A model generated the notes under the pieces. It was not told the DNA's origin. It was given only the letters and a program-made list of their open reading frames with translations, and ran no database searches. This document shows positions 3,194 to 27,608 of a stretch of 34,636 nt of DNA, in pieces. Source of the DNA: an uncultured Chloroflexota bacterium (GTDB lineage: Bacteria > Chloroflexota > Anaerolineae > B4-G1 > DUEL01); NCBI GenBank assembly GCA_937138275.1, contig CAKZOY010000355.1, forward strand, positions 1-34,636, in the 5' to 3' direction. Position 1 is the first letter of the stretch. The number at the start of each line of letters is the position of its first letter. Made by a program: the position numbers and the translations under genes.

Positions 3194-4153
3194 CTATCCG
3201 CTCTCCGGGGGGGCAGCCCGCCCGTTTTGAGCGTCCGTTAAGATTTGCCAGCAGCCCTCCCAGACTCGCCGCGCGGTGCGGAATTGGGCCCTTGCGGGGG
3301 CGCGACGGGCAGGGAAGGGCAAAGTCAGGGTCGCGATCGCAGTTTTCACTCCGTAGGCGGTCGCGATGGCTATGCCCAGCAGGAGGGCGGGCAGGAAGCC
3401 GTAGTGCTTGCGGAAAAAGCGCATTTTGCTCCGGTAGAGGCGTCCCACCGATTCGGGGCGGCATTGCTTGCTGCTGGCCCCGCCGAAGTGGACAATCTCT
3501 ACGTCGGGCAGGTAGTACACTTTCCACCCGGCCCGGTGGATGCGGTAGCACAGGTCCGTATCTTCGGAGTACATCCAGAAGCCCTCATCCAGTGGGCCGA
3601 CGGCCTCCAGGGCCATCCGGCGCAAGAGCAGGGATGCGCCGGGAACCCAATCCACCGGAGCGGGCCGGTCGTCGGGCCGGGGGGAGGGGCTGGGATGGTA
3701 CGGCCCATAAAGGCGGCGGTTCAGGCCGAAGGCGGAGAGGCTTTCCGAGAGTAGCGTCGGGAAGCGGGCGTAGGAGGCCTGGAAGGAACCGTCCGGGTTG
3801 ACCAGTTTGGGACCGGCTGCCCCGGCATCGGGGTGGTCTTCCATAAAAGCGACCATTCGGGCCAGGCTCCCGGGCGGGGCAACGGTGTCGCTATTGAGCA
3901 GAAGGACGTAACGCCCCCGGCTGAGGGTGATCCCCTGATTGGTGGCACGGACGAAACCGGCGTTTTCCCCATTTTCCACCAGATGAACCTGGGGGTAGTG
4001 GGCGCGCACCATAGCGGCGCTGCCGTCGGTGGAATTGTTATCCACCACGATGGTTTCAGCGCTCAGTCCTTCCGTTGCCGCGGGAAGGGAATCCAGGCAT
4101 CGGCGCAGAAGTTCCCTTGTGTTCCAGTTTACAACGACGATAGAGAGGTCCAT
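3194..4153 (-). CDS. Family 2 glycosyltransferase (GT-A fold)
   Basis: N-terminus [23 protein letters not shown]...[10 protein letters not shown]...NAGF...LLNSD and a later [10 protein letters not shown] are classic GT2 motifs. Hydrophobic C-terminal segment. Stop is 10 nt upstream of the next gene start. Confidence 0.85.
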
Positions 4154-4265
4154 ACGATGATCGTATCTTTCTGCCGGAGACCGAACCCTCGGCTCAAAGC
4201 GAGACCCGACTGGCGCAGGCTGAAGCGTTGCTCTGGTCTGAAAATAAACTGCGGTTCGGCTCGTG

Positions 4266-6317: not shown

Positions 6318-8342
6318 CTATGCATAGGTTGCTACCACGGAATATGAACCTGCCCGAACGGACATACACCCGTATGGGATTCCCCCCACTCTGCGCTCGC
6401 TATAGGGGACGGGTCGCCCCTCCACCTCCACCTGAGACAACCGGGCTCCCCCATGCTCCAAAGGGACCATCAGGGTCAGTTCCGCATCGGCGACTGCCTG
6501 AGTCACCAGTTGGAAACTCAGGCGTCGGGTCTCCGGATGCCATTGTACTTCTTCCAGAGCAGCGTCGTGCCGGACTTCGGTGAAGCGCAGCCATTCGGCT
6601 GCCGACCAGATGGGGATACCGTGGGTTGCTGCATATTCCAGCGTTCCCTCCATCCAGTGGCCTGCCTCGTTGGCAAGGTCGCTACCGCTTTGGATGAACG
6701 GGTCGGTGTGGAATTGGGCAACAATCGCAGCGGGAAAGCGGTCAAGGCTGCTGCGCAGAAGGTTTCTTGAGATCGTCACCGCATCTTCGGCCAGCAACCG
6801 TGCCGGCCCGTTGGCAAAGGCCAGCAGGTGCTCATCTGTTAATTGCGTCAGTTGCTGGTAAATGTTCAATACGCGGCCCTGTTCGTCCACGAACTTCATC
6901 GGTAGCCCGCTGCCGGTGAAATGCCCATAAACCCACTCCTCGGTTTCGGTGCGGAAGGCGGGGCCCCAATGGTAGTAGTCCAGATTCAGGCCAATCCCAT
7001 AGGAGACCTGAAGGCGAGCGGTTTCCACCCAACCGGTCCATAGGATGCGGTGAGTGCGCACTGTCGGCGAGATCGGGCCGTAGCCCAGGCCGGTGAACTC
7101 CCGCCAGTACGTGTCCCATCCCTGTTCCAGACCGTCGTCCACATAGGGGTGTACGGTGAATTCGTGTCCGCGCGCTCGCCAATTGGCGATATGAGAAGGT
7201 GTCGGAAGGGTGTACGGGCCAGCCAGTGCTTCTCCTACCAGAGGGAGCCCCTCCGCCCATCGCTTTGTCCGGCGGCCTGCACGGCGCCAGTGGCCGGGAG
7301 AGAGAGGCGGCGAGTAGTAGATGGACATCCGGCCGCCATACCGCTCCACCCGTTTCAGCGCATTCTCTATGGCCCAGGTCGGGTTGTTGTGCGAGTCACC
7401 AGTGGCGATGAGTATCGCCCTTGCCATGCCCGGGAGGTACCCCAACCGGGGCAGTGGCGGGCCCTCCTGGCTCATAAATGCCAGCAGATTGACCAGCAGC
7501 CGTTGCTGTTCATCGGCCTGGGGTATGGGGATACGCTCCGGGTCCATCCAGCCCACGAACATATCGCAGGCCCGTATGTAATTCGCTCCATCCTGTTCCT
7601 GGTTTGCCCAGGCCGGGTTGCCCTGGCGGGTATAGGCCACACTGCGGGCCAGGTCAAAGGCCCACATCGCTGCCCAGCCTTCTCCAGAACGGTAGATGGT
7701 CACGGCCGGGAAACTGGTCCGCGTGGCTCGGTCGCTATGTAGCCAGGCCACCGCATCCGCGCCCGCCAGGCGATAATGGTCGGCTACGCCGTGGAACTGC
7801 AAAGTCTCCGTTGCAATCCCCCTGCCCACCGGATGGCTCGCCTCCACCTGCAGGTATCCCTCTGCCGTGGTGCCTCCCGTCGGTTGCAGGCCAAGGAGGG
7901 GAGCCAGGCGGACGTCGGGCCGCATAGCGATCAGTCGCCCGCCTTGGGCGACATAACTTTCCAGTCGCTTCGCCTGGTTGGCGCTCAGCGGCCCCTCTGC
8001 AAGGAGAATCAGGTCAAATCGTTCCAGGGGGATCCGGTCCATGTCGGATAGGCGCGCGGTCCAGAAACAATTCAGTCCCTCGGCGCGCAGGATCTCTGCC
8101 AGGTAGAGCCCGAAGGGATTGTCGCTGCGTTCGTTGATCAGCAGCAGGATGGGGCGGACCGCTGCCGGAAGCGATGACCAGTTCTCCAGTATCTCTACGG
8201 GCGCGTAGGGAGAGAGGCGGGGGGGCGGATCGCCCTCCGCGTCCTGTAGCAGGTCGTAGCCCAGCAGGGTCGGTACAGCGAGGGTGCCGGCGATCCCTGC
8301 CAGTTTCAGGAATTGGCGACGGGTGAGTTTGGGAGCAGTCAT
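6318..8342 (-). CDS. Tat-exported protein of unknown function (GATase1-like N-domain plus hydrolase/deacetylase-like domain)
   Basis: Twin-arginine signal MTAPKLTRRQFLKLAGIAGTLAVPTLL. Domain order resembles the 1..3183 protein (ILLLINERSD...LILLAEG...GGRLIAM; ILIATGDSHNNP; HEFTVHPY). Confidence 0.7.
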   Translation of the reverse strand: MTAPKLTRRQFLKLAGIAGTLAVPTLLGYDLLQDAEGDPPPRLSPYAPVEILENWSSLPAAVRPILLLINERSDNPFGLYLAEILRAEGLNCFWTARLSDMDRIPLERFDLILLAEGPLSANQAKRLESYVAQGGRLIAMRPDVRLAPLLGLQPTGGTTAEGYLQVEASHPVGRGIATETLQFHGVADHYRLAGADAVAWLHSDRATRTSFPAVTIYRSGEGWAAMWAFDLARSVAYTRQGNPAWANQEQDGANYIRACDMFVGWMDPERIPIPQADEQQRLLVNLLAFMSQEGPPLPRLGYLPGMARAILIATGDSHNNPTWAIENALKRVERYGGRMSIYYSPPLSPGHWRRAGRRTKRWAEGLPLVGEALAGPYTLPTPSHIANWRARGHEFTVHPYVDDGLEQGWDTYWREFTGLGYGPISPTVRTHRILWTGWVETARLQVSYGIGLNLDYYHWGPAFRTETEEWVYGHFTGSGLPMKFVDEQGRVLNIYQQLTQLTDEHLLAFANGPARLLAEDAVTISRNLLRSSLDRFPAAIVAQFHTDPFIQSGSDLANEAGHWMEGTLEYAATHGIPIWSAAEWLRFTEVRHDAALEEVQWHPETRRLSFQLVTQAVADAELTLMVPLEHGGARLSQVEVEGRPVPYSERRVGGIPYGCMSVRAGSYSVVATYA

Positions 8343-19368: not shown

Positions 19369-20711
19369 CTTCCCTCCAGAATTTGCCGATAGACGGTCAG
19401 GAGTTCCGCCACCTCGTCGCGGATCAGGCGCTCCGGGCGAATTCCCCGCCGCAAGCGAGTGAAGAAGTCAGGTTCGTCCAGGAACTGCCGGATTTGGCGG
19501 GCCAGGTCCCGGTCATCGCCGGGGCGAAAACGAAGACCGTCCTGTGGATCCCGGACCATTTCGGCCATCCCCCCCAGGTCTGATGCGATGACCGGCACTC
19601 CCGCTGCGTGGGCCTCCAGGATGGTGAGCGGCGCGTTCTCGTACCAGAGGGAAGGCACCACCAGCACGTCCAGATCGGCCAGGACGGCGGGAATATGTCG
19701 GTTTTCCACCTGTCCCTCAAACCGAATGTGGGGATGTCCGCCCGCCAACCGTCGGAGATGTTGGGCATACTGAGGGAACCGGGTGGTATCCCCATAGATA
19801 CGCAGTTCCCAGGGTCCATCTGCATTTTCCAGTTGACGGACCGCCTTTAGCAGGACATGTACGCCTTTGTGGGGGGCGATCTGGCCGATGTACCCGATGC
19901 GCAAGCGACCGTTCGGGGAGTCCAATCGGGCGGGAGGTTGGGCCCACATATCATCCAGACCATAGCGGGAATAATAGAGCAGGTCCGGCACTACACCGCC
20001 CCGCTGGATAAATATGCGCTCCAGGAAACGGGAGGGGACGATCAGCAAGTCCATCGCGTGCAGGACCTCTGCCAACCGCTGCCGCCGTTCGTGCATCGTT
20101 TCCACCCGCGCCGACCATCCAGTGAGGTGGCCCGGAATAGAAGGCCGCAGCAAGTTCTGGGCCAGTCTTCCCACCAGGCCGCGGGACACCCGATCGGGTA
20201 GCCGGTAGCGGCGCTTTTCGGTCAGCAGGCACCAGGCACACTCGGCGGGGTCGTCTGGCACTTCGCAGAGCGTGCCGTCGGGCCGCTGCAGGTGGATGCG
20301 CGGGCAGAGAAACCAGAAGTCGTGCAGGGTCAGAATGACGGGGAGCCCCGCCGCCTGTGCCGCCCTGGCCACGCTGCCAGTCAGCAGATAGCCGCCCTGA
20401 AGATGGACCAGGTCGGGGCGGTGTTCCTCCAGGAAACGGCCGAACCACTCTCCCAGTTGAGGGTTCCAGAATTCCCAGCGCCGCGGGTCGGGGGCCAGGG
20501 CCAGGTTGAAGAGGAGCCGATGGACGGGAATCCCTTCGTATTCTTCGGAGACGCATTGGGGCTCCAGTGTGCCCTCGGAAACGGATTCCACGCATATCAC
20601 ATCCACCCGATGGCCCAGTTGCTGGAGATGGCGGGCCAGACGGTAGGTATACAATTCCGCTCCAGCCACATACCGGGGCGGGAAATGGTGGACGGGCAGG
20701 ACGATGTGCAT
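19365..20711 (-). CDS. GT4 (GT-B fold) glycosyltransferase
   Basis: MHIVLPVHHFPPRYVAGAELYTYRLARHL...; C-terminal YENAPLTILEAHAAGVPVIASDLGGMAEMV. Confidence 0.85.
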   Translation of the reverse strand: MHIVLPVHHFPPRYVAGAELYTYRLARHLQQLGHRVDVICVESVSEGTLEPQCVSEEYEGIPVHRLLFNLALAPDPRRWEFWNPQLGEWFGRFLEEHRPDLVHLQGGYLLTGSVARAAQAAGLPVILTLHDFWFLCPRIHLQRPDGTLCEVPDDPAECAWCLLTEKRRYRLPDRVSRGLVGRLAQNLLRPSIPGHLTGWSARVETMHERRQRLAEVLHAMDLLIVPSRFLERIFIQRGGVVPDLLYYSRYGLDDMWAQPPARLDSPNGRLRIGYIGQIAPHKGVHVLLKAVRQLENADGPWELRIYGDTTRFPQYAQHLRRLAGGHPHIRFEGQVENRHIPAVLADLDVLVVPSLWYENAPLTILEAHAAGVPVIASDLGGMAEMVRDPQDGLRFRPGDDRDLARQIRQFLDEPDFFTRLRRGIRPERLIRDEVAELLTVYRQILEGR

Positions 20712-22159
20712 CAGGAGACCTCCTGTGTTTTCGCGCGCTGGCGCACCAGGTCGCCCAGCAGGAGAATTTCCTGGCGGCCCAGCGAGCCGAACGCCGCCAG
20801 CAGGATCAGGTAGACCGCTGCTCCCAGCGCGACGACGAGGAAAAAGTTGGCCCCGCGGGCCAGGAACACGACGGCCCCCATCAGCCCCGCCGCGATACCG
20901 GGCTTTACCAGAACGGTCACTGTATCAACAGAGGCCAGTTCCCGACGCAGAAGCCAGAGGTACTGGCCGGCCAGAATCATTTCGGTGAGGACGGTGATAA
21001 CCGAGGCAGCCAGGAACCCCCAGCGGGGAATAAAGACCAGGTTGAGGCTCACGTTGAACGCTGTACTGACGAGGAGCGCCCGGGCTACTTTTTTCTCCTG
21101 GTCGTGGATCACGGTGATGTTTCCCAGCATTTCCGTCAGGAACATCAGCGGCAGCACCCAGATCAGGATGCGCAGAGCAAGGGCCGACGCCGCAAACTGG
21201 TCGGTGTAGAGCAGGTGCACCAGCGGTTCGGCCAGGACCGTCGCCCCCGCCGCGACCGGAAGGGCGATGAGGAGCAGGTATTTCAGCGCCTGCGTGTAGA
21301 GGGTGGGCATCCCCTGCGGGTTGACCGAATGCTGGCGGCACAGGGCCGGGTATAGGGCCAGATTGACGGAGTTGGAGACCATCGTCAGCAAAAAGATCAG
21401 GTTATAGGCGGCGCTATACCATCCGGTGACCGCGTCGCCGTGGAAGTACTGGAGGAGGACCGTATCCACTTTGTACGAGAGGCCCAGGGAAAAGCCGATA
21501 ACGCCGAAGGGGAGCGCGGCCTTTAGCAGCGCGGGCCACAGTTGTGGTTGCGGGTGCCAGGACACTCCGCTTGTGCTGCGAAGGAACCGCCACCCGATGG
21601 CCGTAGATATGCCCAGGCTGACCAGCGAAACGACCAGCAGTCCGATGAATCCCAGCCCGCCGAAGAGGACCAGAGTCCCTAATACGACGAATCCCATCTG
21701 GTTCAGGACGTTCATCGCCGATAGGAGGTCCAGCCGTTCGCGGGCGATCAGGAAACTCTCTATCGGGCCTCTCACCGCGTAGAGGAACAGCCCACAACCC
21801 CCGATAGCCGCGCCCAGGACCAGTTCCGGCAACCGCTTCAGCGCCAGTGCCGACCCGACGATGACAGCCAGTGTGCCGGTCGAAAGGATCAGGCGCAGGA
21901 GAACCCCGTTGGCGAACAGCATCGGTGCCCGTTCGGGCCTCTTGGCGACCTCACGCACGATATAGGGGGCCAGCCCCAGGTCGGAGAGGATGGCGAATAT
22001 CCCCACGTAGGCCAGCGCGGTGGCGTAGAGGCCGTAACTGGCATCCCCCAGACGGCGGACGATAAATATAGAGAAGGCCACGGATAAAACTTTGACCGTG
22101 ACCTGACCGGTCAGGCTGAACAGCGAATTTCTGGCAACGACAGCGGATATGCGCTTCAT
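20711..22159 (-). CDS. wzx: Oligosaccharide/polysaccharide flippase (MOP superfamily, Wzx-like)
   Basis: MKRISAVVARNSLFSLTGQVTVKVLSVAFSIFIVRRLGDASYGLYA..., about 12-14 TM segments. Start 22159 has an ATGA overlap. The track extension to 22291 is rejected. Confidence 0.8.
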   Translation of the reverse strand: MKRISAVVARNSLFSLTGQVTVKVLSVAFSIFIVRRLGDASYGLYATALAYVGIFAILSDLGLAPYIVREVAKRPERAPMLFANGVLLRLILSTGTLAVIVGSALALKRLPELVLGAAIGGCGLFLYAVRGPIESFLIARERLDLLSAMNVLNQMGFVVLGTLVLFGGLGFIGLLVVSLVSLGISTAIGWRFLRSTSGVSWHPQPQLWPALLKAALPFGVIGFSLGLSYKVDTVLLQYFHGDAVTGWYSAAYNLIFLLTMVSNSVNLALYPALCRQHSVNPQGMPTLYTQALKYLLLIALPVAAGATVLAEPLVHLLYTDQFAASALALRILIWVLPLMFLTEMLGNITVIHDQEKKVARALLVSTAFNVSLNLVFIPRWGFLAASVITVLTEMILAGQYLWLLRRELASVDTVTVLVKPGIAAGLMGAVVFLARGANFFLVVALGAAVYLILLAAFGSLGRQEILLLGDLVRQRAKTQEVS

Positions 22160-23961
22160 ACGGGAATGGTCTCTTGTGCTCTGGCAGCCATCTGGGTAGC
22201 CAGTGATTGGGCAATCAGTTGCTCCACATCTTCCGGGCGGATGCGCCACCAGAACCCCACCCGCCTGGCAGGCAGTTTCCCTGTCTGGCACCAGTGGCGG
22301 ACTGTCTCTTTGCTGACCCCCAGGCGGTCTGCCGCTTCGGCCATCGTGAGGAACTTCCGCTCCTTCCGATGGCGGGGGCGTTTCTTATCTTTGCCGTAAT
22401 AAGCGTAACCGTAACTATAACCGTAGGAAGAGGATTGGACCCGATTGAAGACCACTCCCAACAGGTTGACTCCCTCCTGCCCCATCAGCCGGTCCCGTGC
22501 CTTGCGGGCGGCGGTGTGGCTGGTGATGCCGTCGTCCACGACCAGAAGAGTGGCGTCGGCCATACTGGCCATCAGGGCAGCCTCGGGCGGGCCCAATACC
22601 GGAGGGCTGTCCAGCAGGATGACATCGGCATAGCGCTTGAGTTCGTCCAGCATGGTCCGGAAACGCCGGGAACTGACCAGCAGCGCCGGTTCCACCGAGG
22701 TCCGCCCGGCGGGAAGAAGCCACAGACGTTCTATCCCTGTGGACCGAAGTGCAATGGAGGGTTGCAGGTCTTCCTGCGAACCGTTCAACAGGTCGGCCAT
22801 CCCTACCACGTTGGGCTGCTCAAAGAACTCGTGCAGAGACGGTCGGCGCAGGTCCACATCCGCCACGATCACGCGGTACCCGGCCTCGGTCAGCGCCATC
22901 GCCAGATGGGCCAAGACGAAGCTCTTTCCCTCCTGTGCGCCCGGGCTGGTGACCAGAAGCGTTCGGGGAGCCCGGTTGGGGTGGGCGAAGAAAATCTGCG
23001 TCTGGATACCGTGGACGCTCTCCGATAGGATGGGAATACTGGCGTGGTGAACCGGGCCTCCGTTCCGCTGCCGCTGAGTGATTTGGGGGATGGCTCCCAG
23101 GATGGGCAGGCCCAGGCTGGCCTGGACGGTGTCGTTTTCCCACCGGATGGAAGTGTCCAGATAATCCATCAGAATCAGCGCCGCGATGGCCAGCCCCAGG
23201 CCAGCAACCCCGGCCACGGCGATGATGAGCCAGGTCTTGCGGGGGAGAGGGGTAGAGGGTTGCGACGCCGAATCAAACAATGAGAGCAGGTTCGGTGACT
23301 CCGGGTTGTAGACCTGCAAAAAATCGGCGTAACGGGCCTGGTAGGTGGTCTTCACCGTTTCCAGAGCCGCGATCCGGTCCTGGATTTCCTTGATCTCGGC
23401 CGCGGAGGTTAGAGTAGCCATCTGAGCGGTTAAACGGTCAATCTCCTGGTCTACTTCCTCTATCTTGGCGCGCAAACTGGCCATCTGGTTGCGGATGAAC
23501 GTCTGTTGTTCCGGGTCGCTGGCACCAGAAGCAGGACTACGGCGGATCAATTCGTCGGCCAGGGTGTTGGCGATCAGCGCGGCCGCCCGCGGGTCCGTGT
23601 CCACCACCCGAATCTCCAGAAGTTGTGCCCCGGAATAAATGCGGGTCTCTATTTGAACGGCCAGTTGCTCCGGCGTGCGGGGCAGGCCCAACCGCTCAAT
23701 GACTGCCTCCAGCACTGGCCGTTGTTTCGCCAGTTCGGCATATGCGCCAGCCAGGGTGGTGCTCAGGTTCATTTGCCACGGGTCGGGATTGAGGGTTTGC
23801 AGGCTGGTGCCCACCATCAGCGTCGCCCGGGCCTGGTACAGGGGGGGCTGCCGGGCGGTCAACTGGTAACTGACCAGCATCGGGACCAGCGTGCTCACCA
23901 CGAGCAACCACCACCATCGCCCGATCAGCCGGATATAGCGTTGCAGGATCTGTTCATTCAT
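22156..23961 (-). CDS. Wzz-type chain-length determinant fused to BY-kinase (CpsD/Etk-like P-loop) with Tyr cluster and an additional C-terminal excisionase-type HTH
   Basis: TM1 RWWWLLVVSTLVPMLV, coiled-coil region, TM2 WLIIAVAGVAGLGLAIAALIL. Walker A SPGAQEGKS, Walker A-prime VIVADVDLRRP, Walker B ILLDSPP. Tyr cluster SSSYGYSYGYAYYG. Then KKRPRHRKERK and FLTMAEAADRLGVSKETVRHWCQTGKLPARRVGFWWRIRPEDVEQLI. ATG 23961 (MNEQIL) is preferred; the alternative is ATG 23997. Confidence 0.85.
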   Translation of the reverse strand: MNEQILQRYIRLIGRWWWLLVVSTLVPMLVSYQLTARQPPLYQARATLMVGTSLQTLNPDPWQMNLSTTLAGAYAELAKQRPVLEAVIERLGLPRTPEQLAVQIETRIYSGAQLLEIRVVDTDPRAAALIANTLADELIRRSPASGASDPEQQTFIRNQMASLRAKIEEVDQEIDRLTAQMATLTSAAEIKEIQDRIAALETVKTTYQARYADFLQVYNPESPNLLSLFDSASQPSTPLPRKTWLIIAVAGVAGLGLAIAALILMDYLDTSIRWENDTVQASLGLPILGAIPQITQRQRNGGPVHHASIPILSESVHGIQTQIFFAHPNRAPRTLLVTSPGAQEGKSFVLAHLAMALTEAGYRVIVADVDLRRPSLHEFFEQPNVVGMADLLNGSQEDLQPSIALRSTGIERLWLLPAGRTSVEPALLVSSRRFRTMLDELKRYADVILLDSPPVLGPPEAALMASMADATLLVVDDGITSHTAARKARDRLMGQEGVNLLGVVFNRVQSSSYGYSYGYAYYGKDKKRPRHRKERKFLTMAEAADRLGVSKETVRHWCQTGKLPARRVGFWWRIRPEDVEQLIAQSLATQMAARAQETIPV

Positions 23962-24673
23962 CTCGTTGTCCCCCCGATGCGCCACCGTTTGCGACAAAGT
24001 AGTACCCTACTCGCCAGCGGGTGCGGATGTACCGAGGATTGGCGGGATCATCCTCAATTTTCTGCCGCAGGTATCGGATGTAGACACTCAGGTATCCCGT
24101 CTCGTCGGCGTAGGCGGGCCCCCAAACGCAGGCCAGCAACTCTTTGTGGGGGATAACCCGTCCCTCGTGACTGGCAAGGTAGAGCAACAGACGGGATTCG
24201 GTTGGGGTGAGAGGGACCGGTTCCCCATTTCGGGTGACCGTCCCCTCGGAGAAATCTATGTACAGATTCCCGTCGTCGTAGACATTCTGGCGCACCTTGC
24301 CGGATGTCCCCGCGGCCCGACGTAACAAAGCGCGGATACGGGCTTTCAGTTCCTCAAAGGTGCAGGGCTTCATAACGTAGTCGTCAGCGCCAATGGAGAG
24401 CCCTCGGATGACCCCGTCCCGCTCATCTACCGCGGTCAGGATAAGGATCGGTGTATCGCAGATGTACCGCAGCCGCTGACAGACCTCCCAGCCGTCCATC
24501 CCCGGCATGAGGATATCCAGGAGAATCACGTCGGGGCGGTTCTCGTAGGCCTGTCGCAGTCCTTCCTGCCCTCCCAGGGCGGTAATGACCTCGTACCCTT
24601 CTCGTTCCAGCCCCATCCGCAAAAGGGTGAGTAACCCGGGATCATCATCAATGATCAGGACCTTTTCGTTCAT
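23954..24673 (-). CDS. OmpR/PhoB-family response regulator (receiver plus winged helix)
   Basis: VLIIDDDPGLL...DVILLDILMPGMDG...ILTA...GADDYVMKP, and C-terminal LTPTESRLLLYL...YIRYLRQKIE...IRTRWRVGY. Confidence 0.9.
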   Translation of the reverse strand: MNEKVLIIDDDPGLLTLLRMGLEREGYEVITALGGQEGLRQAYENRPDVILLDILMPGMDGWEVCQRLRYICDTPILILTAVDERDGVIRGLSIGADDYVMKPCTFEELKARIRALLRRAAGTSGKVRQNVYDDGNLYIDFSEGTVTRNGEPVPLTPTESRLLLYLASHEGRVIPHKELLACVWGPAYADETGYLSVYIRYLRQKIEDDPANPRYIRTRWRVGYYFVANGGASGGQRDE

Positions 24674-24705: not shown

Positions 24706-24714
24706 ATATTAGCA
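24706..24714 (-). promoter_or_regulatory. Possible extended -10 element (TGCTAATAT) for the response-regulator-led operon
   Basis: On the minus strand, TGC-TAATAT lies about 33 nt upstream of ATG 24673 in an AT-richer stretch. No convincing -35. Confidence 0.3.
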
Positions 24715-24794
24715 GGGACTCGTATGGGATAGGTGAAGAAAAGGTAAAGATGGGATAAAAATTGAGCCCATAGAAAAGAACGGGTAGTCACGTT

Positions 24795-24877
24795 GTAGGG
24801 GCGGACGGTCCGTCCGCCCTCCATGGGGAGGGGGTAAGGGGGAGGGGCAAATGAAACTACCTATCGGAGTGACCGCC
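24795..24877. repeat. Dispersed intergenic repeat, copy B (inverted relative to 4266..4373)
   Basis: gtaggggcggacggtccgtccgccctccatggggagggggtaagggggaggggcaaatgaaactacctatcggagtgaccgcc is the reverse complement of copy A, minus the 31-nt insert and a few mismatches/indels. Confidence 0.8.
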
Positions 24878-24884
24878 AAAAGAA

Positions 24885-25027
24885 CGGGCTTGTGCAGTAA
24901 ATCGTTTTGAGGGAACGGCGCGCCCGTGAAAAGAGGGAAAGGGGGGTTTGTGGGGGCGGCGGAGCCGCCCCCACAAACCCCACACCCCACCCTTTTCCCA
25001 GGCGGGGCGAATTGCTGCACAAGCCCG
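24885..25027. mobile_element. 143-bp MITE-like non-autonomous element (13-bp perfect terminal inverted repeats, AGAA flanks)
   Basis: cgggcttgtgcag at 24885-24897 and ctgcacaagcccg at 25015-25027 are perfect reverse complements. agaa lies immediately outside both ends (24881-24884 and 25028-25031). The interior folds as a long hairpin (ggggtttgtgggggcggc gga gccgcccccacaaacccc). No coding capacity. Confidence 0.6.
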
Positions 25028-25041
25028 AGAACGCCGCGTTT

Positions 25042-25070
25042 TTGACGTTTGCGTTTCCTTGTGGTATAAT
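25042..25070 (+). promoter_or_regulatory. Near-consensus sigma70-type promoter of the arsR-ATPase operon
   Basis: TTGACG (25042-25047), 17-nt spacer, TATAAT (25065-25070). Confidence 0.7.
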
Positions 25071-25078
25071 TTGAGCAG

Positions 25079-25107
25079 TTATTCAATTGAACACTTATTC
25101 AAATGTG
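25079..25107 (+). promoter_or_regulatory. ArsR/SmtB-type operator (12-2-12-like imperfect inverted repeat)
   Basis: TGAACA-CT-TATTCA core at 25088-25101, just downstream of the -10. Half sites ttcaattgaaca / tattcaaatgtg match 8 of 12 as an inverted repeat. Flanked by direct repeats TTATTCAA at 25079-25086 and 25095-25102. Confidence 0.6.
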
Positions 25108-25146
25108 GGTCGTTCCCTGCGGGATGGAGCGATCCGGAGGTGCGTG

Positions 25147-25437
25147 GTGGACGGTTCTCTCGCCCGCTCTATGGCCCGGACGTTCCGGGCTCTGGCCGAC
25201 CCGACGCGCGTGCGCATCCTGGCGGCCCTCTCGGAAGAGGAACTGTGCGTCGGTGCACTGGCAGCGCGCCTGGAGATGACGCCATCGGCGATCTCCCATC
25301 AGTTGCGCCTGCTCCGCCGGATGCATCTGGTACGGCGCAGGCGGGAGGGCAAGCGCGCCCTCTACGCCCTGGACGATAACCATGTGCGCGACCTGTTTGC
25401 CGTTGCGCGAGAACACGTGCTGGAGAAATACGGATGA
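25147..25437 (+). CDS. ArsR/SmtB-family metal-sensing transcriptional repressor (alpha5-site type)
   Basis: FRALADPTRVRILAAL..EELCVGALA..L.M..SAISHQLRLLR...LV..RREGKRALYAL, and alpha5-like ligand pattern DDNHVRDLFAVAREHVLE (D-x-H-x10-H-x2-E). Start GTG 25147 lies 6 nt after GGAGG. The TTG 25087 of the track lies inside the operator. ATG 25171 is an alternative start. Confidence 0.85.
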   Translation: MDGSLARSMARTFRALADPTRVRILAALSEEELCVGALAARLEMTPSAISHQLRLLRRMHLVRRRREGKRALYALDDNHVRDLFAVAREHVLEKYG

Positions 25438-27608
25438 GTTCGCAGGATAAGAAGACCTTTCTGCTGCGGGTGGAGGGGCTGGATTGCGCTGAGTGTGCGC
25501 TCCGTCTGGAGGAGGCCGCAGCGCGCCTGCCCGGTGTGGCACATGCCGAGGTCTCCTTCGCCACCGGACGGATGCGCCTGGTCGCCGAGGACGGGGACCG
25601 GGTGATCCCCCAGGTGCAGGACCTGGCCCGGAGGATGGGGTACGAGGTTGCGCCCCCGACCACTGCCGCCGAAGAGGCGGGATGGCGGGGCCTGCTTCGC
25701 CATCGGTCCCGCCTCCTGCCCACCGCGCTGGCGGGAGCGCTGCTCATGCTGGCGCTGGTAGTCCATCTGATGGGAGGCCCGGCGTATCTGCGGGATGGTA
25801 TGCTCATCGTGGCGGCGCTGGTCGGTGGATGGCCCGTCGCCCGGGCCGGGTGGGTGGCGCTCCGCGCGACCCGCCGCCCCGATATGAATGTCCTGATGAC
25901 CGTCGCCGTGCTGGGCGCGATCGCCATCGGCGAATATGCCGAGGGCGGGGTGGTGGTCTTTCTCTTCTCCGTGGGGGAACTGTTGGAGGCGCTGACGATG
26001 GACCGCGCCCGAAACGCCGTCCGCTCTCTGATGGCGCTGCGCCCTCTGGAGGCGACCCGTCTGACGGCCGATGGGGAGGAGCGGGTGCCGGTGGAGGCGC
26101 TGGCGGTGGGGGACCGGATTCTGATCCGCCCCGGCGAGCGCATCCCGGCCGACGGGCAGATTGTGGAGGGACGGTCGGCCGTAGATCAGGCCTCCATCAC
26201 GGGTGAAGGGTTGCCGGTGGAGAAGGGGCCGGGGGATGAGGTCTTTGCCGGGACGATCAACGGCCCCGGCGCGCTGACGGTGGAGGTCACGCGTCCGGCG
26301 TCGGATAGTACGCTGGCGCGGATGGTCCATCTGGTGGAGGAGGCGCAGGAGCAACGGGCGCCCAGCCAGCGGCTGGTGGACCGGTTTGCCGCCGTGTACA
26401 CCCCCGCGGTGGTGATCGGGGCGTTGCTGGTGGCGACCGTTCCACCGCTGCTGGGGGTGGGGCCGTTCCTGGCGTGGCTCTACCGCGCTCTGGTGCTGCT
26501 GGTGATCGCCTGCCCCTGCGCGCTGGTCATCTCCACGCCGGTGGCGGTGGTCAGCGGGCTGACCGCCGCCGCCCGCGCCGGCATCCTGGTGAAGGGCGGC
26601 ATCCATCTGGAGCAACTGGCCCGGGTGCGCGCCGTTGCCTTTGATAAGACGGGCACGCTCACGCGGGGACAGCCCCAACTGGTGGGCGGTCAGTGTGGGA
26701 ACCACGTTGCCGACCGCAGCCCGCAGGAGTGTGCGGATTGTCTGGACCTGCTGGCGAAGGCGGCAGCGGTAGAGTCCCGGTCGGAGCACCCACTGGCCCG
26801 GGCGGTGGTGCAGGCAGCCCGGGAGTTGGGCGTCGCCGAACGGTACGGCCCGGCGGAGGCAGTGGAGAGCGAGCCGGGCCGCGGGATACAGGGACGGGTC
26901 GCCGGTCACGTGGTCAAGGTCGGCAGTCACGCCTACGTCCACGGCACTCGGGCGGATGAAGATGCTTTCTGTCAGCAGGTGGAGGCCGTTTCCGCCCGCG
27001 GGCGGACCGCGGTGATGGTGGAGGACGTCTGCTGCGCCAACCGTGCCTATGGAGTGGTGGCGGATGCAGTGCGGCCGGAGGCGGCGGATGTGGTGGCGGC
27101 CCTGAAAACCTTAGGGGTCCGCCATACGGTGATGCTCACCGGCGACAGCCCGGCGGTGGCGGAGCGTATTGCGCGGGATGCCGGGGTGGACGAGGTGCGG
27201 GCGGGGCTCTTGCCCCAGCAGAAGGTGGAGGCGATCGGGGAATTGCTGACTCGCCACGGGACGGTCGTCATGGTGGGGGATGGGGTCAACGACGCCCCGG
27301 CGCTGGCGCGGGCCAGCGTGGGCATTGCTATGGGCGCGGCCGGCTCCGACATCGCCCTGGAGACGGCCGATGTGGCTCTGATGGGAGACGACTTGCGCGG
27401 GCTACCCTACGTCATCCATCTGAGCCGCCGGGTGGTTGCCATCATCCGGCAGAACGTGGCTTTCTCGCTGGCAGCCAAGGGGGCGTTCCTGGTGCTGGCG
27501 GTGGCGGGCGCGGCGACCCTCTGGATGGCGGTCTTCGCCGATGTGGGCGTCTCCCTGCTGGTCATTCTCAACGGGATGCGGCCGCTGGTTTTCTCCCGGC
27601 GCGGGTAA
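25434..27608 (+). CDS. P1B-type heavy-metal-translocating ATPase (Zn/Cd/Pb-type, CadA/ZntA-like)
   Basis: N-terminal HMA domain with GLDCAECA. TM6 has CPC (VIACPCALVISTP). DKTGTLT, GDGVNDAPAL. TM7 Lys (SLAAKGAF) and TM8 Asp (FADVGVSLLVILNGMR). ATGA overlap with the arsR stop. Confidence 0.9.
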   Translation: MSSQDKKTFLLRVEGLDCAECALRLEEAAARLPGVAHAEVSFATGRMRLVAEDGDRVIPQVQDLARRMGYEVAPPTTAAEEAGWRGLLRHRSRLLPTALAGALLMLALVVHLMGGPAYLRDGMLIVAALVGGWPVARAGWVALRATRRPDMNVLMTVAVLGAIAIGEYAEGGVVVFLFSVGELLEALTMDRARNAVRSLMALRPLEATRLTADGEERVPVEALAVGDRILIRPGERIPADGQIVEGRSAVDQASITGEGLPVEKGPGDEVFAGTINGPGALTVEVTRPASDSTLARMVHLVEEAQEQRAPSQRLVDRFAAVYTPAVVIGALLVATVPPLLGVGPFLAWLYRALVLLVIACPCALVISTPVAVVSGLTAAARAGILVKGGIHLEQLARVRAVAFDKTGTLTRGQPQLVGGQCGNHVADRSPQECADCLDLLAKAAAVESRSEHPLARAVVQAARELGVAERYGPAEAVESEPGRGIQGRVAGHVVKVGSHAYVHGTRADEDAFCQQVEAVSARGRTAVMVEDVCCANRAYGVVADAVRPEAADVVAALKTLGVRHTVMLTGDSPAVAERIARDAGVDEVRAGLLPQQKVEAIGELLTRHGTVVMVGDGVNDAPALARASVGIAMGAAGSDIALETADVALMGDDLRGLPYVIHLSRRVVAIIRQNVAFSLAAKGAFLVLAVAGAATLWMAVFADVGVSLLVILNGMRPLVFSRRG

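Follow-up and report, generated by a model that had tools for sequence, protein, structure and literature searches.

In a 34,636-nucleotide stretch of DNA from an uncultured Chloroflexota bacterium (contig CAKZOY010000355.1, called the window below), we found a bacterial tyrosine kinase (BY-kinase) of 601 amino acids (aa) that does not end at its tyrosine cluster. The chain continues through a basic linker into a winged helix-turn-helix (HTH) domain of the HTH_17/excisionase family. We are highly confident that this is a genuine BY-kinase/HTH fusion, and it is a real, conserved, and apparently undescribed variant of a known kinase family. An initial annotation of the window had stated that canonical BY-kinases stop at the tyrosine cluster, and these kinases do terminate in a Y-cluster tail (PMC9800525). 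It had also said that it did not know the architecture as a described system. In agreement with this, full-text searches of a literature collection with few subscription journals turned up no report of a DNA-binding domain fused to a BY-kinase, and term searches within a phylogenomic survey and a 2022 review found none either.

The protein is a BY-kinase with a Wzc-like membrane module

The kinase gene (22156 to 23961, reverse strand) is an uninterrupted open reading frame (ORF) from ATG to TGA. An alternative TTG start at 23997 would give a longer ORF and is possible, if unnecessary. The initial annotation had placed a two-transmembrane Wzz-like module, a P-loop kinase domain, a tyrosine cluster, a basic linker, and an excisionase- or MerR-like HTH_17 segment in this one ORF. 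Our analysis of the ORF, with profiles, AlphaFold2 (AF2) models, and Foldseek, bore this out: the 601 codons are open, the motifs are present, and the positions given for them were right within a few bases.

The full-length AF2 model, which rests on 96 homologues, has one transmembrane (TM) helix at aa 17 to 36 (WWWLLVVSTLVPMLVSYQL; 23854 to 23913), a hydrophobic run visible in the sequence, and another at aa 243 to 268 (23158 to 23235). Between them, AF2 secondary structure and Foldseek matches to Wzc indicate a periplasmic or extracytoplasmic domain of the Wzz type (aa 37 to 242; 23236 to 23853), which includes a long coiled hairpin of helices. Foldseek matched the full model to Escherichia coli Wzc chains (9r62 and 7nhr) with E values of 1e-26 to 1e-23. 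The Pfam Wzz model itself fell just under its cutoff at aa 6 to 90 (23.1 bits; cutoff, 25.5), and the chain-length-determinant models TIGR03007 and TIGR01006 gave partial matches at about aa 221 to 299, far below their cutoffs.

The catalytic domain (aa 316 to 523; 22393 to 23016) was recognized by TIGR01007, "polysaccharide biosynthesis tyrosine autokinase" (eps_fam), with 136.4 bits against a cutoff of 108.05. The MinD/ParA-type P-loop models CbiA, ParA, and MipZ also scored above their Pfam cutoffs in the kinase, and AAA_31 scored just under its own (21.6 bits; cutoff, 27). Walker A (TSPGAQEGKS, aa 338 to 347; 22921 to 22941), Walker A' (VIVADVDLR, aa 364 to 372; 22846 to 22872), and Walker B (VILLDSPP, aa 447 to 454; 22600 to 22623) are intact in the sequence. 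In the alignment of the 96 homologues, G345, D368, and H377 are invariant, and K346, D370, R372, D451, and P453-P454 are nearly so. By Foldseek, the kinase part matched CapAB kinase domains with TMt values of 0.82 to 0.89; Etk and BceF were also matched.

The tyrosine cluster that follows, YGYSYGYAYY (22396 to 22425), holds six tyrosines (Y513, Y515, Y517, Y519, Y521, and Y522). A 13-aa basic linker, K524 to K536 (KDKKRPRHRKERK; 22354 to 22392), joins it to the HTH, and the 14 residues after the last tyrosine (G523 to K536) carry a net charge of +7. Residues 511 to 533 have a predicted local distance difference test (pLDDT) value of about 34 in the AF2 model, as expected of a disordered, flexible tail.

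We therefore found the profile match, the Walker motifs, the flexible tyrosine tail after the kinase domain, and the two-TM activator of Wzc fold by which BY-kinases are recognized. The exception is the oligomerization (O) motif of Wzc. Its canonical form is ExxRxxR, and alignment column counts put E314-x2-H317-x2-Q320 (23002 to 23022) at this place in the window protein. Since the O motif is conserved but not defining, we kept the protein in the family; because of the ExxHxxQ form, Wzc-like octamer formation is uncertain for it. By the family criteria, the window protein is a BY-kinase with predicted autophosphorylation activity.

The C-terminal segment is predicted to fold as an excisionase-type winged HTH

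The HTH (aa 537 to 585, with a C-terminal helix to about aa 595; 22177 to 22353) starts at F537, window position 22353. HTH_17 (PF12728) matched aa 537 to 585 with an E value of 6e-13 and 49.3 bits (cutoff, 27), and TIGR01764, "excisionase family DNA-binding," matched the same residues with 45.8 bits (cutoff, 28.8). On the last 71 aa alone, the two models scored 54.1 and 50.7 bits. Pfam MerR, run on the whole protein, stayed under its cutoff (26.1 bits; cutoff, 28.2).

The full-length AF2 model contains a confident kinase domain and a separate helix-helix-hairpin-helix unit at aa 538 to 595. We also modeled the domain alone and found helices at residues 10 to 17, 21 to 30, and 46 to 65 and strands at 35 to 38 and 41 to 44, with a pLDDT of about 75 to 85. 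This is the helix, turn, recognition helix, and beta-hairpin wing of the winged-helix fold. Foldseek with the HTH-only model returned mycobacteriophage Pukovnik Xis (4j2n; root mean square deviation [RMSD], 1.2 Å over 48 residues; 40% identity) and BldC (6ama and 6amk; RMSD, 1.3 to 1.4 Å; 39% identity), followed by RacA, the sensor-less MerR protein NmlR, and the excisionase RdfS. The E values were no better than 1e-3 to 1e-2, a consequence of the small size of the domain. A search of the PDB by sequence alone gave the same top three, Pukovnik Xis, BldC, and RacA. Profiles and predicted fold thus agree in identifying the C-terminal segment as a genuine winged HTH of the excisionase/MerR-like kind.

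About 20 helix residues and a short disordered end follow the wing. Since there is no long dimerization coiled coil or effector domain, the protein is not a classical MerR regulator. We found no integrase or recombinase among the called genes of the window contig or of the related loci with gene tables, and with no recombinase nearby, the domain is not a functional excisionase.

The nearest relatives of the HTH are all DNA binders, so by homology it likely binds DNA as well. In BldC-DNA structures, W31 contacts a phosphate and kinks the DNA, R30 contacts a base, K33 and T29 contact phosphates, and R48 lies in the wing (PMC5859096). We placed these residues on the family by HMMER alignment and counted them over the 96 homologues. 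The equivalent of W31, W557, is conserved in 96/96. The position of R30 (556) is R in 69/96 and H in the window protein, and that of K33 (559) is K or R in 86/96 and Q in the window protein. The equivalents of T29 and R48 are R555 (78/96) and R573 (73/96). The family median for the net charge of the domain is +4. There is no Tyr in aa 537 to 601, and regulation through a tyrosine within the HTH, as in FatR, was ruled out on this ground.

The fusion is an old, conserved trait of a Chloroflexota lineage

The identical protein is present in NCBI, JGI, ENA, and Logan assemblies. A homologue search returned 725 proteins at E values of <1e-10, and we examined the best 120 (50 to 91% identity; mostly 585 to 610 aa). 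PF12728 was found in all 120, and the order of kinase, tail, and HTH was kept at the C terminus of every one. An HTH hidden Markov model (HMM) also found the domain at the C terminus of 15 of the 150 best-scoring BY-kinase representatives of 50%-identity clusters, and some of these fused representatives are only 36 to 39% identical to the query. Wherever members carry a source name, it is Chloroflexi/Chloroflexota, Anaerolineae, or Anaerolineales. A scan of GTDB genomes with narrow peptide patterns, whose reach did not extend to spread beyond Chloroflexota, found two species genomes. We concluded that the fusion is an old, conserved trait of a Chloroflexota (Anaerolineae) lineage, whose fused-kinase organisms are known solely as metagenome-assembled genomes (MAGs) and metagenome contigs.

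The initial annotation had allowed that the fusion might prove to be a widespread, annotated architecture. Widespread it is, with at least 120 clusters at 90% identity and 15 at 50% identity in metagenomic Chloroflexota, but its members are named only generically, as "polysaccharide biosynthesis tyrosine autokinase," "ExoP," or "capsular exopolysaccharide synthesis family protein," without description of the fusion.

We asked whether the fusion could be an artefact (a lost stop codon, a frameshift, or a chimera) or the functionless excisionase remnant of a mobile element. HTH_17 occurs mostly in small phage and mobile-element proteins, and the closest solved relative of the domain is a phage Xis. 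Yet the same protein came from four independent sources, and the fusion is in frame in the 120 best homologues and in distant 50%-cluster representatives, and on this comparison we rejected a lost stop codon or other artefact. The tail length is constant, the HTH has invariant positions, and the ATG of M540 is not conserved. No integrase or mobile-element gene is among the called genes of the loci with gene tables, and for this and the conserved junction we rejected a mobile-element remnant. Taken together, these data leave this explanation very improbable.

We likewise rejected the idea that the HTH is also made as a protein of its own, started at the internal ATG of M540. Most members have Leu at this position, so such a start is not a family feature.

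Within the fused family, the HTH keeps its invariant and nearly invariant positions, and the tail varies. In the 96-sequence alignment, the median tail length is 29 aa and most members have 2 to 4 Tyr; at the extreme, one member has none and six have one. The net charge of the linker ranges from -8 to +9 (median, +2). Members of the window subclade (73 to 91% identity) have 4 to 7 Tyr in YGY repeats and a linker of 14 to 19 residues with a net charge of +5 to +8. A clade at about 50% identity has mostly 2 to 4 Tyr, acidic to basic linkers, and mostly the canonical ExxRxxR motif. Thus, the tyrosine cluster and basic linker first noticed in the window protein are present there, but such long and basic forms are confined to its subclade. 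At the O-motif columns we found ExxRxxR in 58/96 and ExxHxxQ in 13/96, the latter covering the whole aligned subclade of the window. This ExxHxxQ subclade also has the longest tyrosine clusters and the most basic linkers. One protein of 690 aa, P0013 (84% identical; on a 4.8-kb contig), has a DNA_alkylation domain (PF08713) after the HTH; this may be an additional fusion, or an error of assembly or gene calling may have produced it.

The fused kinase is coupled to one response regulator and its promoter

Directly upstream of the kinase gene, the window encodes a 239-aa response regulator of the OmpR/PhoB family, here called RR-A (23954 to 24673, reverse strand). Its stop overlaps the kinase start by 8 nucleotides (nt) (ATGAATGA), and in the window the start and stop codons of RR-A, the kinase, and a downstream flippase gene all overlap. 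To see how far this arrangement reaches, we gathered related loci by exact-protein look-ups and one metagenome scan and searched their ORFs with the window regulator and kinase. Loci with kinases at least 95% identical were collapsed, and fused loci were counted only if they had enough upstream sequence. An RR-A orthologue lies directly upstream, on the same strand, in 19 of 21 nonredundant fused loci (phmmer E values of about 1e-105 to 1e-131, and 5e-50 in L035) and in none of the three closest unfused relatives that could be looked up. A one-sided Fisher test of RR-A against fusion gave about 0.005, a figure that is indicative only, the loci being phylogenetically related. In two of the three unfused relatives, a priming sugar transferase is upstream instead. 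Members of the 50%-identity clade have a second, paralogous regulator farther upstream, and no histidine kinase gene adjoins RR-A in any listed locus.

The RR-A gene is preceded by a conserved promoter block (24706 to 24760, reverse strand), which we identified by pattern search and consensus. It begins with three direct repeats, TTTTAT (24755 to 24760), CTTTAC (24744 to 24749), and CTTCAC (24733 to 24738), with an exact 11-bp period. The -10-like hexamer TAATAT (24706 to 24711), preceded by TGC, lies 20 nt past the last repeat, and a conserved CCATACG (24721 to 24727, within CTATCCCATACG) sits in the spacer. The triple-repeat pattern occurs once in the window, where the chance expectation is 0.00. 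A two-repeat pattern gave 16 matches on both strands of 575 kb of related loci. Fifteen of these precede an RR-A gene by 76 to 356 nt and share its strand; the remaining match, 1,445 nt upstream, is an additional copy in L028. The consensus of 12 nonredundant loci from both clades is TTcACcTTTccTTtACCTATccCATACGgcTtttTGtTAnanT. Outside the window, the conserved promoter lies at L006 6732, L008 6602, L009 5195, L010 252, L011 3083, L014 3190, L017 3514, L019 3144, L023 1381, L026 289, and L028 3139. Across loci, the spacer with its invariant-looking CCATACG is 20 to 21 nt long and is followed by a TGn-extended -10-like hexamer. About 45 nt are conserved across clades whose kinases are about 50% identical, and a properly spaced -35 is lacking. 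A sigma-70 consensus scan found no promoter on the operon strand, which is consistent with, but does not prove, an activator-dependent promoter without a correctly spaced -35.

OmpR/PhoB-family regulators use tandem repeats with an 11-bp period that overlap the -35 region. Because the repeats are in this style, we provisionally assigned them to RR-A. The CCATACG in the overlong spacer would be the most obvious candidate site for a second factor, although this is speculation from the sequence. Together, the adjacency of RR-A and the 11-bp repeats suggest that the HTH most likely acts with or on RR-A and not alone. We concluded that the fused kinase is genetically coupled to one orthologous OmpR-family regulator and its conserved promoter, and their conservation makes a regulatory role for the fusion plausible. 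The initial annotation had proposed a one-component membrane-tethered regulator; the architecture behind this proposal is real, but the proposal misses RR-A, the direct upstream neighbor in nearly all fused loci.

This coupling could also mean that the HTH serves mainly for protein contacts and binds RR-A in the manner of TorI. Depending on its own phosphorylation state, the kinase would retain RR-A at the membrane, let it go, or modulate it, and RR-A alone would bind DNA. The C-terminal helix of TorI serves protein contacts (PMC3509656), and in the AF2 model the window HTH likewise ends in a long C-terminal helix. RR-A adjacency follows the presence of the HTH (19/21 fused versus 0/3 unfused), the two genes overlap, no histidine kinase gene adjoins RR-A in the listed loci, and RR-A alone could explain the conserved promoter repeats. 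On the other hand, the family has kept BldC-type DNA contacts (the invariant Trp and the recognition-helix Arg) that a pure protein adaptor would not obviously need. Helix-hairpin-helix (HhH) and ParB-type HTH domains at the same position in other BY-kinases suggest that the ligand is nucleic acid and not a regulator, and two fused members have no adjoining regulator. TorI binds DNA too, so that protein and DNA roles are not exclusive. We consider it unlikely that the HTH serves chiefly as an RR-A adaptor.

Other nucleic-acid-binding domains occupy the same place in related BY-kinases

Among the 150 best BY-kinase representatives of 50%-identity clusters, we found other domains after the tyrosine cluster: HHH_3 (ComEA-like) in P0233 (61.5 bits), HTH_ParB in P0244 (38.9 bits), GAF in P0175, FHA in P0188 and P0264, and TPR in P0193. 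Two members of the fused family, P0076 and P0110, have HHH_5 after HTH_17. P0174 is also among the related BY-kinases with an accessory domain after the tyrosine cluster. In this lineage, the C terminus of these kinases seems to be a site where accessory domains of many kinds are added. That other nucleic-acid-binding folds occur at the same position is a second, independent argument that the HTH binds DNA.

HhH domains are usually sequence-unspecific DNA binders, and their presence here brings up a further model, in which DNA is an input or an anchor. According to this model, the HTH and basic linker bind the chromosome with little sequence preference, which would concentrate and activate the kinase for trans-autophosphorylation or, as with RacA, tether the locus or nucleoid to the assembly site. 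The HhH variants and the basic linker favor it. BY-kinases belong to the MinD/ParA-like P-loop group, several members of which bind DNA, and the best matches to the HTH in sequence and structure include RacA, which anchors chromosomes. The membrane-anchored kinase YabT cannot trans-autophosphorylate without a basic DNA-binding motif next to the membrane (PMC6333020). Unspecific anchoring would, however, leave the tight association with the RR-A gene and the conserved promoter unexplained, and the conserved recognition-helix Arg, which makes a base contact in BldC, hints at some specificity. We consider this input or anchor model unlikely.

A proposed phosphorylation-gated feedback on the operon promoter

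The mechanism that we prefer is feedback through a phosphorylation-gated HTH. The HTH would be a cytoplasmic DNA-binding module tethered to the membrane through the kinase. With the tail unphosphorylated, it would bind DNA at or near the promoter of the RR-A/kinase/wzx operon, where the best candidate site is CCATACG, and would act jointly with RR-A on the 11-bp direct repeats. Autophosphorylation would bring as many as six phosphates, with as many as twelve negative charges, close to the basic linker and the HTH. It would also shift the oligomeric state of the kinase, and DNA affinity or avidity would drop. In this way, the working state of the polysaccharide assembly machine could feed back on transcription of its own locus. 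We put the mechanism as a whole forward tentatively, as quite possible but short of probable.

Several steps have a basis in known BY-kinases. These enzymes autophosphorylate their tails in trans within a ring, the ring dissociates above a threshold of phosphorylation, and dephosphorylation resets it; in Wzc, octamer formation is driven by the O motif ExxRxxR in helix alpha-2 (PMC9800525). Two reports offer precedents for the logic: the BY-kinase PtkA controls DNA binding by FatR in trans (PMC3814354), and production of exopolysaccharide (EPS) in Bacillus subtilis is self-regulated through the EpsAB kinase (PMC4117945).

A number of observations weigh against this mechanism. DNA binding by the HTH, its DNA target, and its gating by phosphorylation are all things that we infer. 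The window protein has H556 and Q559 in place of the BldC-equivalent R and K, and its ExxHxxQ motif weakens the step in which avidity depends on the octamer. Roughly one in three family members has a nonbasic linker, and 0 or 1 Tyr is found in seven, so an electrostatic switch cannot be universal. The direct repeats are what is expected of the OmpR-family regulator itself, so that no site can be assigned to the HTH. Two fused loci, both of distant members, have no adjoining RR-A. The HhH variants hint that specific operator recognition may not be the purpose of the C-terminal domains. We also found no common DNA motif 3' of the kinase gene, where the downstream genes differ by locus.

The phosphorylation-gated mechanism, the RR-A-adaptor model, and the DNA-input or anchor model are not mutually exclusive. 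A broader view would be that the BY-kinases of this Chloroflexota lineage, besides governing polysaccharide export after translation, are signaling proteins with exchangeable C-terminal output domains (HTH_17, HhH, ParB-HTH, GAF, FHA, and TPR), and that an HTH_17 switched directly by phosphorylation of the adjoining tyrosine cluster forms, with a dedicated OmpR-type regulator, a membrane-anchored phosphotyrosine-to-transcription pathway of a kind not known from bacteria. We regard this broader view as possible but doubtful.

The kinase gene heads a polysaccharide locus

We found that the kinase gene heads a Wzx/Wzy-type exopolysaccharide locus. The first downstream Wzx/Wzy-dependent gene encodes a Wzx-type flippase (20711 to 22159, reverse strand), and its ATG overlaps the kinase stop (ATGA). 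The mechanical ORF of the flippase (20711 to 22291, reverse strand) starts from a GTG that lies 132 nt inside the kinase gene; the ATG at 22157 to 22159 agrees with the 482-aa product called in other assemblies. The gene order, as read in L003, is Wzx, glycosyltransferase family 4 (GT4), acetyltransferase, family 2 (GT2), GT4, Wzy, acetyltransferase, DegT aminotransferase, and oxidoreductase. Additional GT2/glycosyltransferase and epimerase genes continue to about position 3194. No Wza gene or phosphatase gene was found among the scanned window ORFs. The PHP-domain family includes CpsB-type tyrosine phosphatases, and in L008, and in that locus only, a PHP-domain gene (3378 to 4253) precedes the kinase gene at a distance of about 4 kb.

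On the other side, the regulator-kinase operon diverges from genes for an ArsR/SmtB-type metalloregulator (25087 to 25437, forward strand) and a heavy-metal P-type ATPase (25434 to 27608, forward strand). A strong sigma-70-like promoter lies on the metalloregulator side, at 25042 to 25070 (forward strand). The same neighbors are found in L011 and are absent from more distant loci, so that this unit and the kinase operon are probably unrelated.

Further noncoding elements near the operon

When the window and two related loci were compared with Rfam, tRNAs were the only hits; the conserved noncoding stretches therefore do not belong to any RNA family described there. RR-A and the divergent ArsR-type gene are separated by 413 bp, in which there are two perfect GC-rich inverted repeats, one at 24943 to 24981 (18-bp arms and a 3-nt loop), with no other copy in the window, and one at 24799 to 24819 (10-bp arms and a 1-nt loop). 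L006 and L008 have a long regulator-kinase spacer, and about 110 nt 5' of the kinase start are nearly identical between them (L006, about 7890 to 8000; L008, about 7880 to 8000) and have no Rfam match. In the two-regulator clade, a leader hairpin stands just 5' of the RR-A ribosome-binding site, with compensatory arm changes between loci (L008 6810 to 6860, L006 6915 to 6965, L014, L017, L019, L020, L026, and L028). Among its arm pairs are GGTCGCG/CGCGGTGACC, GGCCAC/GTGGCC, and GGTCACCA/TGGTGGCC. It may be a leader RNA structure.

Significance of the fusion

Where BY-kinases are known to act beyond the export machine, on gene expression, they do so by way of other proteins that are their substrates. 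A conserved DNA-binding-type domain on the phospho-acceptor tail itself would, if true, be the shortest possible link from the assembly machine to gene control. The family offers natural variants for dissecting such a mechanism, with basic and acidic linkers, 0 to 7 Tyr, and intact and altered O motifs. The Anaerolineae are abundant, little-studied filamentous bacteria of sediments and sludge, and matrix production matters there for the formation of granules and flocs. Annotation as "tyrosine autokinase" or "ExoP" conceals the extra domain.

Comparison with known systems

The window protein resembles Wzc and ExoP in its two TM helices flanking an extracytoplasmic domain, its Walker A, A', and B kinase, its tyrosine cluster, and its place at the head of a Wzx/Wzy locus. 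It differs in that Wzc ends in its Y-cluster tail (PMC9800525), whereas the tail of the window protein is internal and leads into the HTH. Its extracytoplasmic domain is about 200 aa, its O motif is ExxHxxQ, and neither Wza nor a phosphatase is encoded among the scanned window ORFs.

The HTH belongs to the same domain family as BldC, Pukovnik Xis, and RdfS, with 39 to 40% identity over about 48 residues and several BldC DNA contacts conserved. Those proteins are free-standing, about 55 to 70 aa long, and form head-to-tail oligomers on direct repeats; the window domain is the end of a 601-aa membrane enzyme with no recombinase nearby. TorI and TorR offer a parallel: TorI, too, is a winged helix of the excisionase family, has a C-terminal helix, and is functionally linked to a regulator of the OmpR family (PMC3509656). 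TorI is, however, a prophage protein that acts in trans and binds the C-terminal domain of TorR, whereas the tie in the window is one of gene adjacency.

ToxR, CadC, and TcpP are membrane-bound one-component regulators that combine a cytoplasmic DNA-binding domain and an extracytoplasmic domain in one polypeptide. Like them, the window protein would hold a DNA-binding domain at the cytoplasmic face of the membrane through a chain with an extracytoplasmic domain. In contrast, the ToxR family has an N-terminal OmpR-type winged helix, one TM helix, and no enzyme domain, and the HTH of the window protein is C terminal and of the Xis/MerR type. Because the order, the HTH type, and the topology (two TM helices, with the kinase between membrane and HTH) all differ, the window protein is not of the ToxR type.

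Two further systems link a bacterial kinase to DNA binding. YabT also sits in the membrane, phosphorylates itself, and binds DNA through a basic segment (PMC6333020), but it is a Hanks-type Ser/Thr kinase with no folded HTH and a role in spore development. In the PtkA-FatR pair, tyrosine phosphorylation by a BY-kinase governs DNA binding by an HTH regulator (PMC3814354). The phosphotyrosine of FatR lies within the HTH of a separate protein, whereas the predicted phosphosites of the window protein lie 15 to 24 residues upstream of the HTH, in the same chain.

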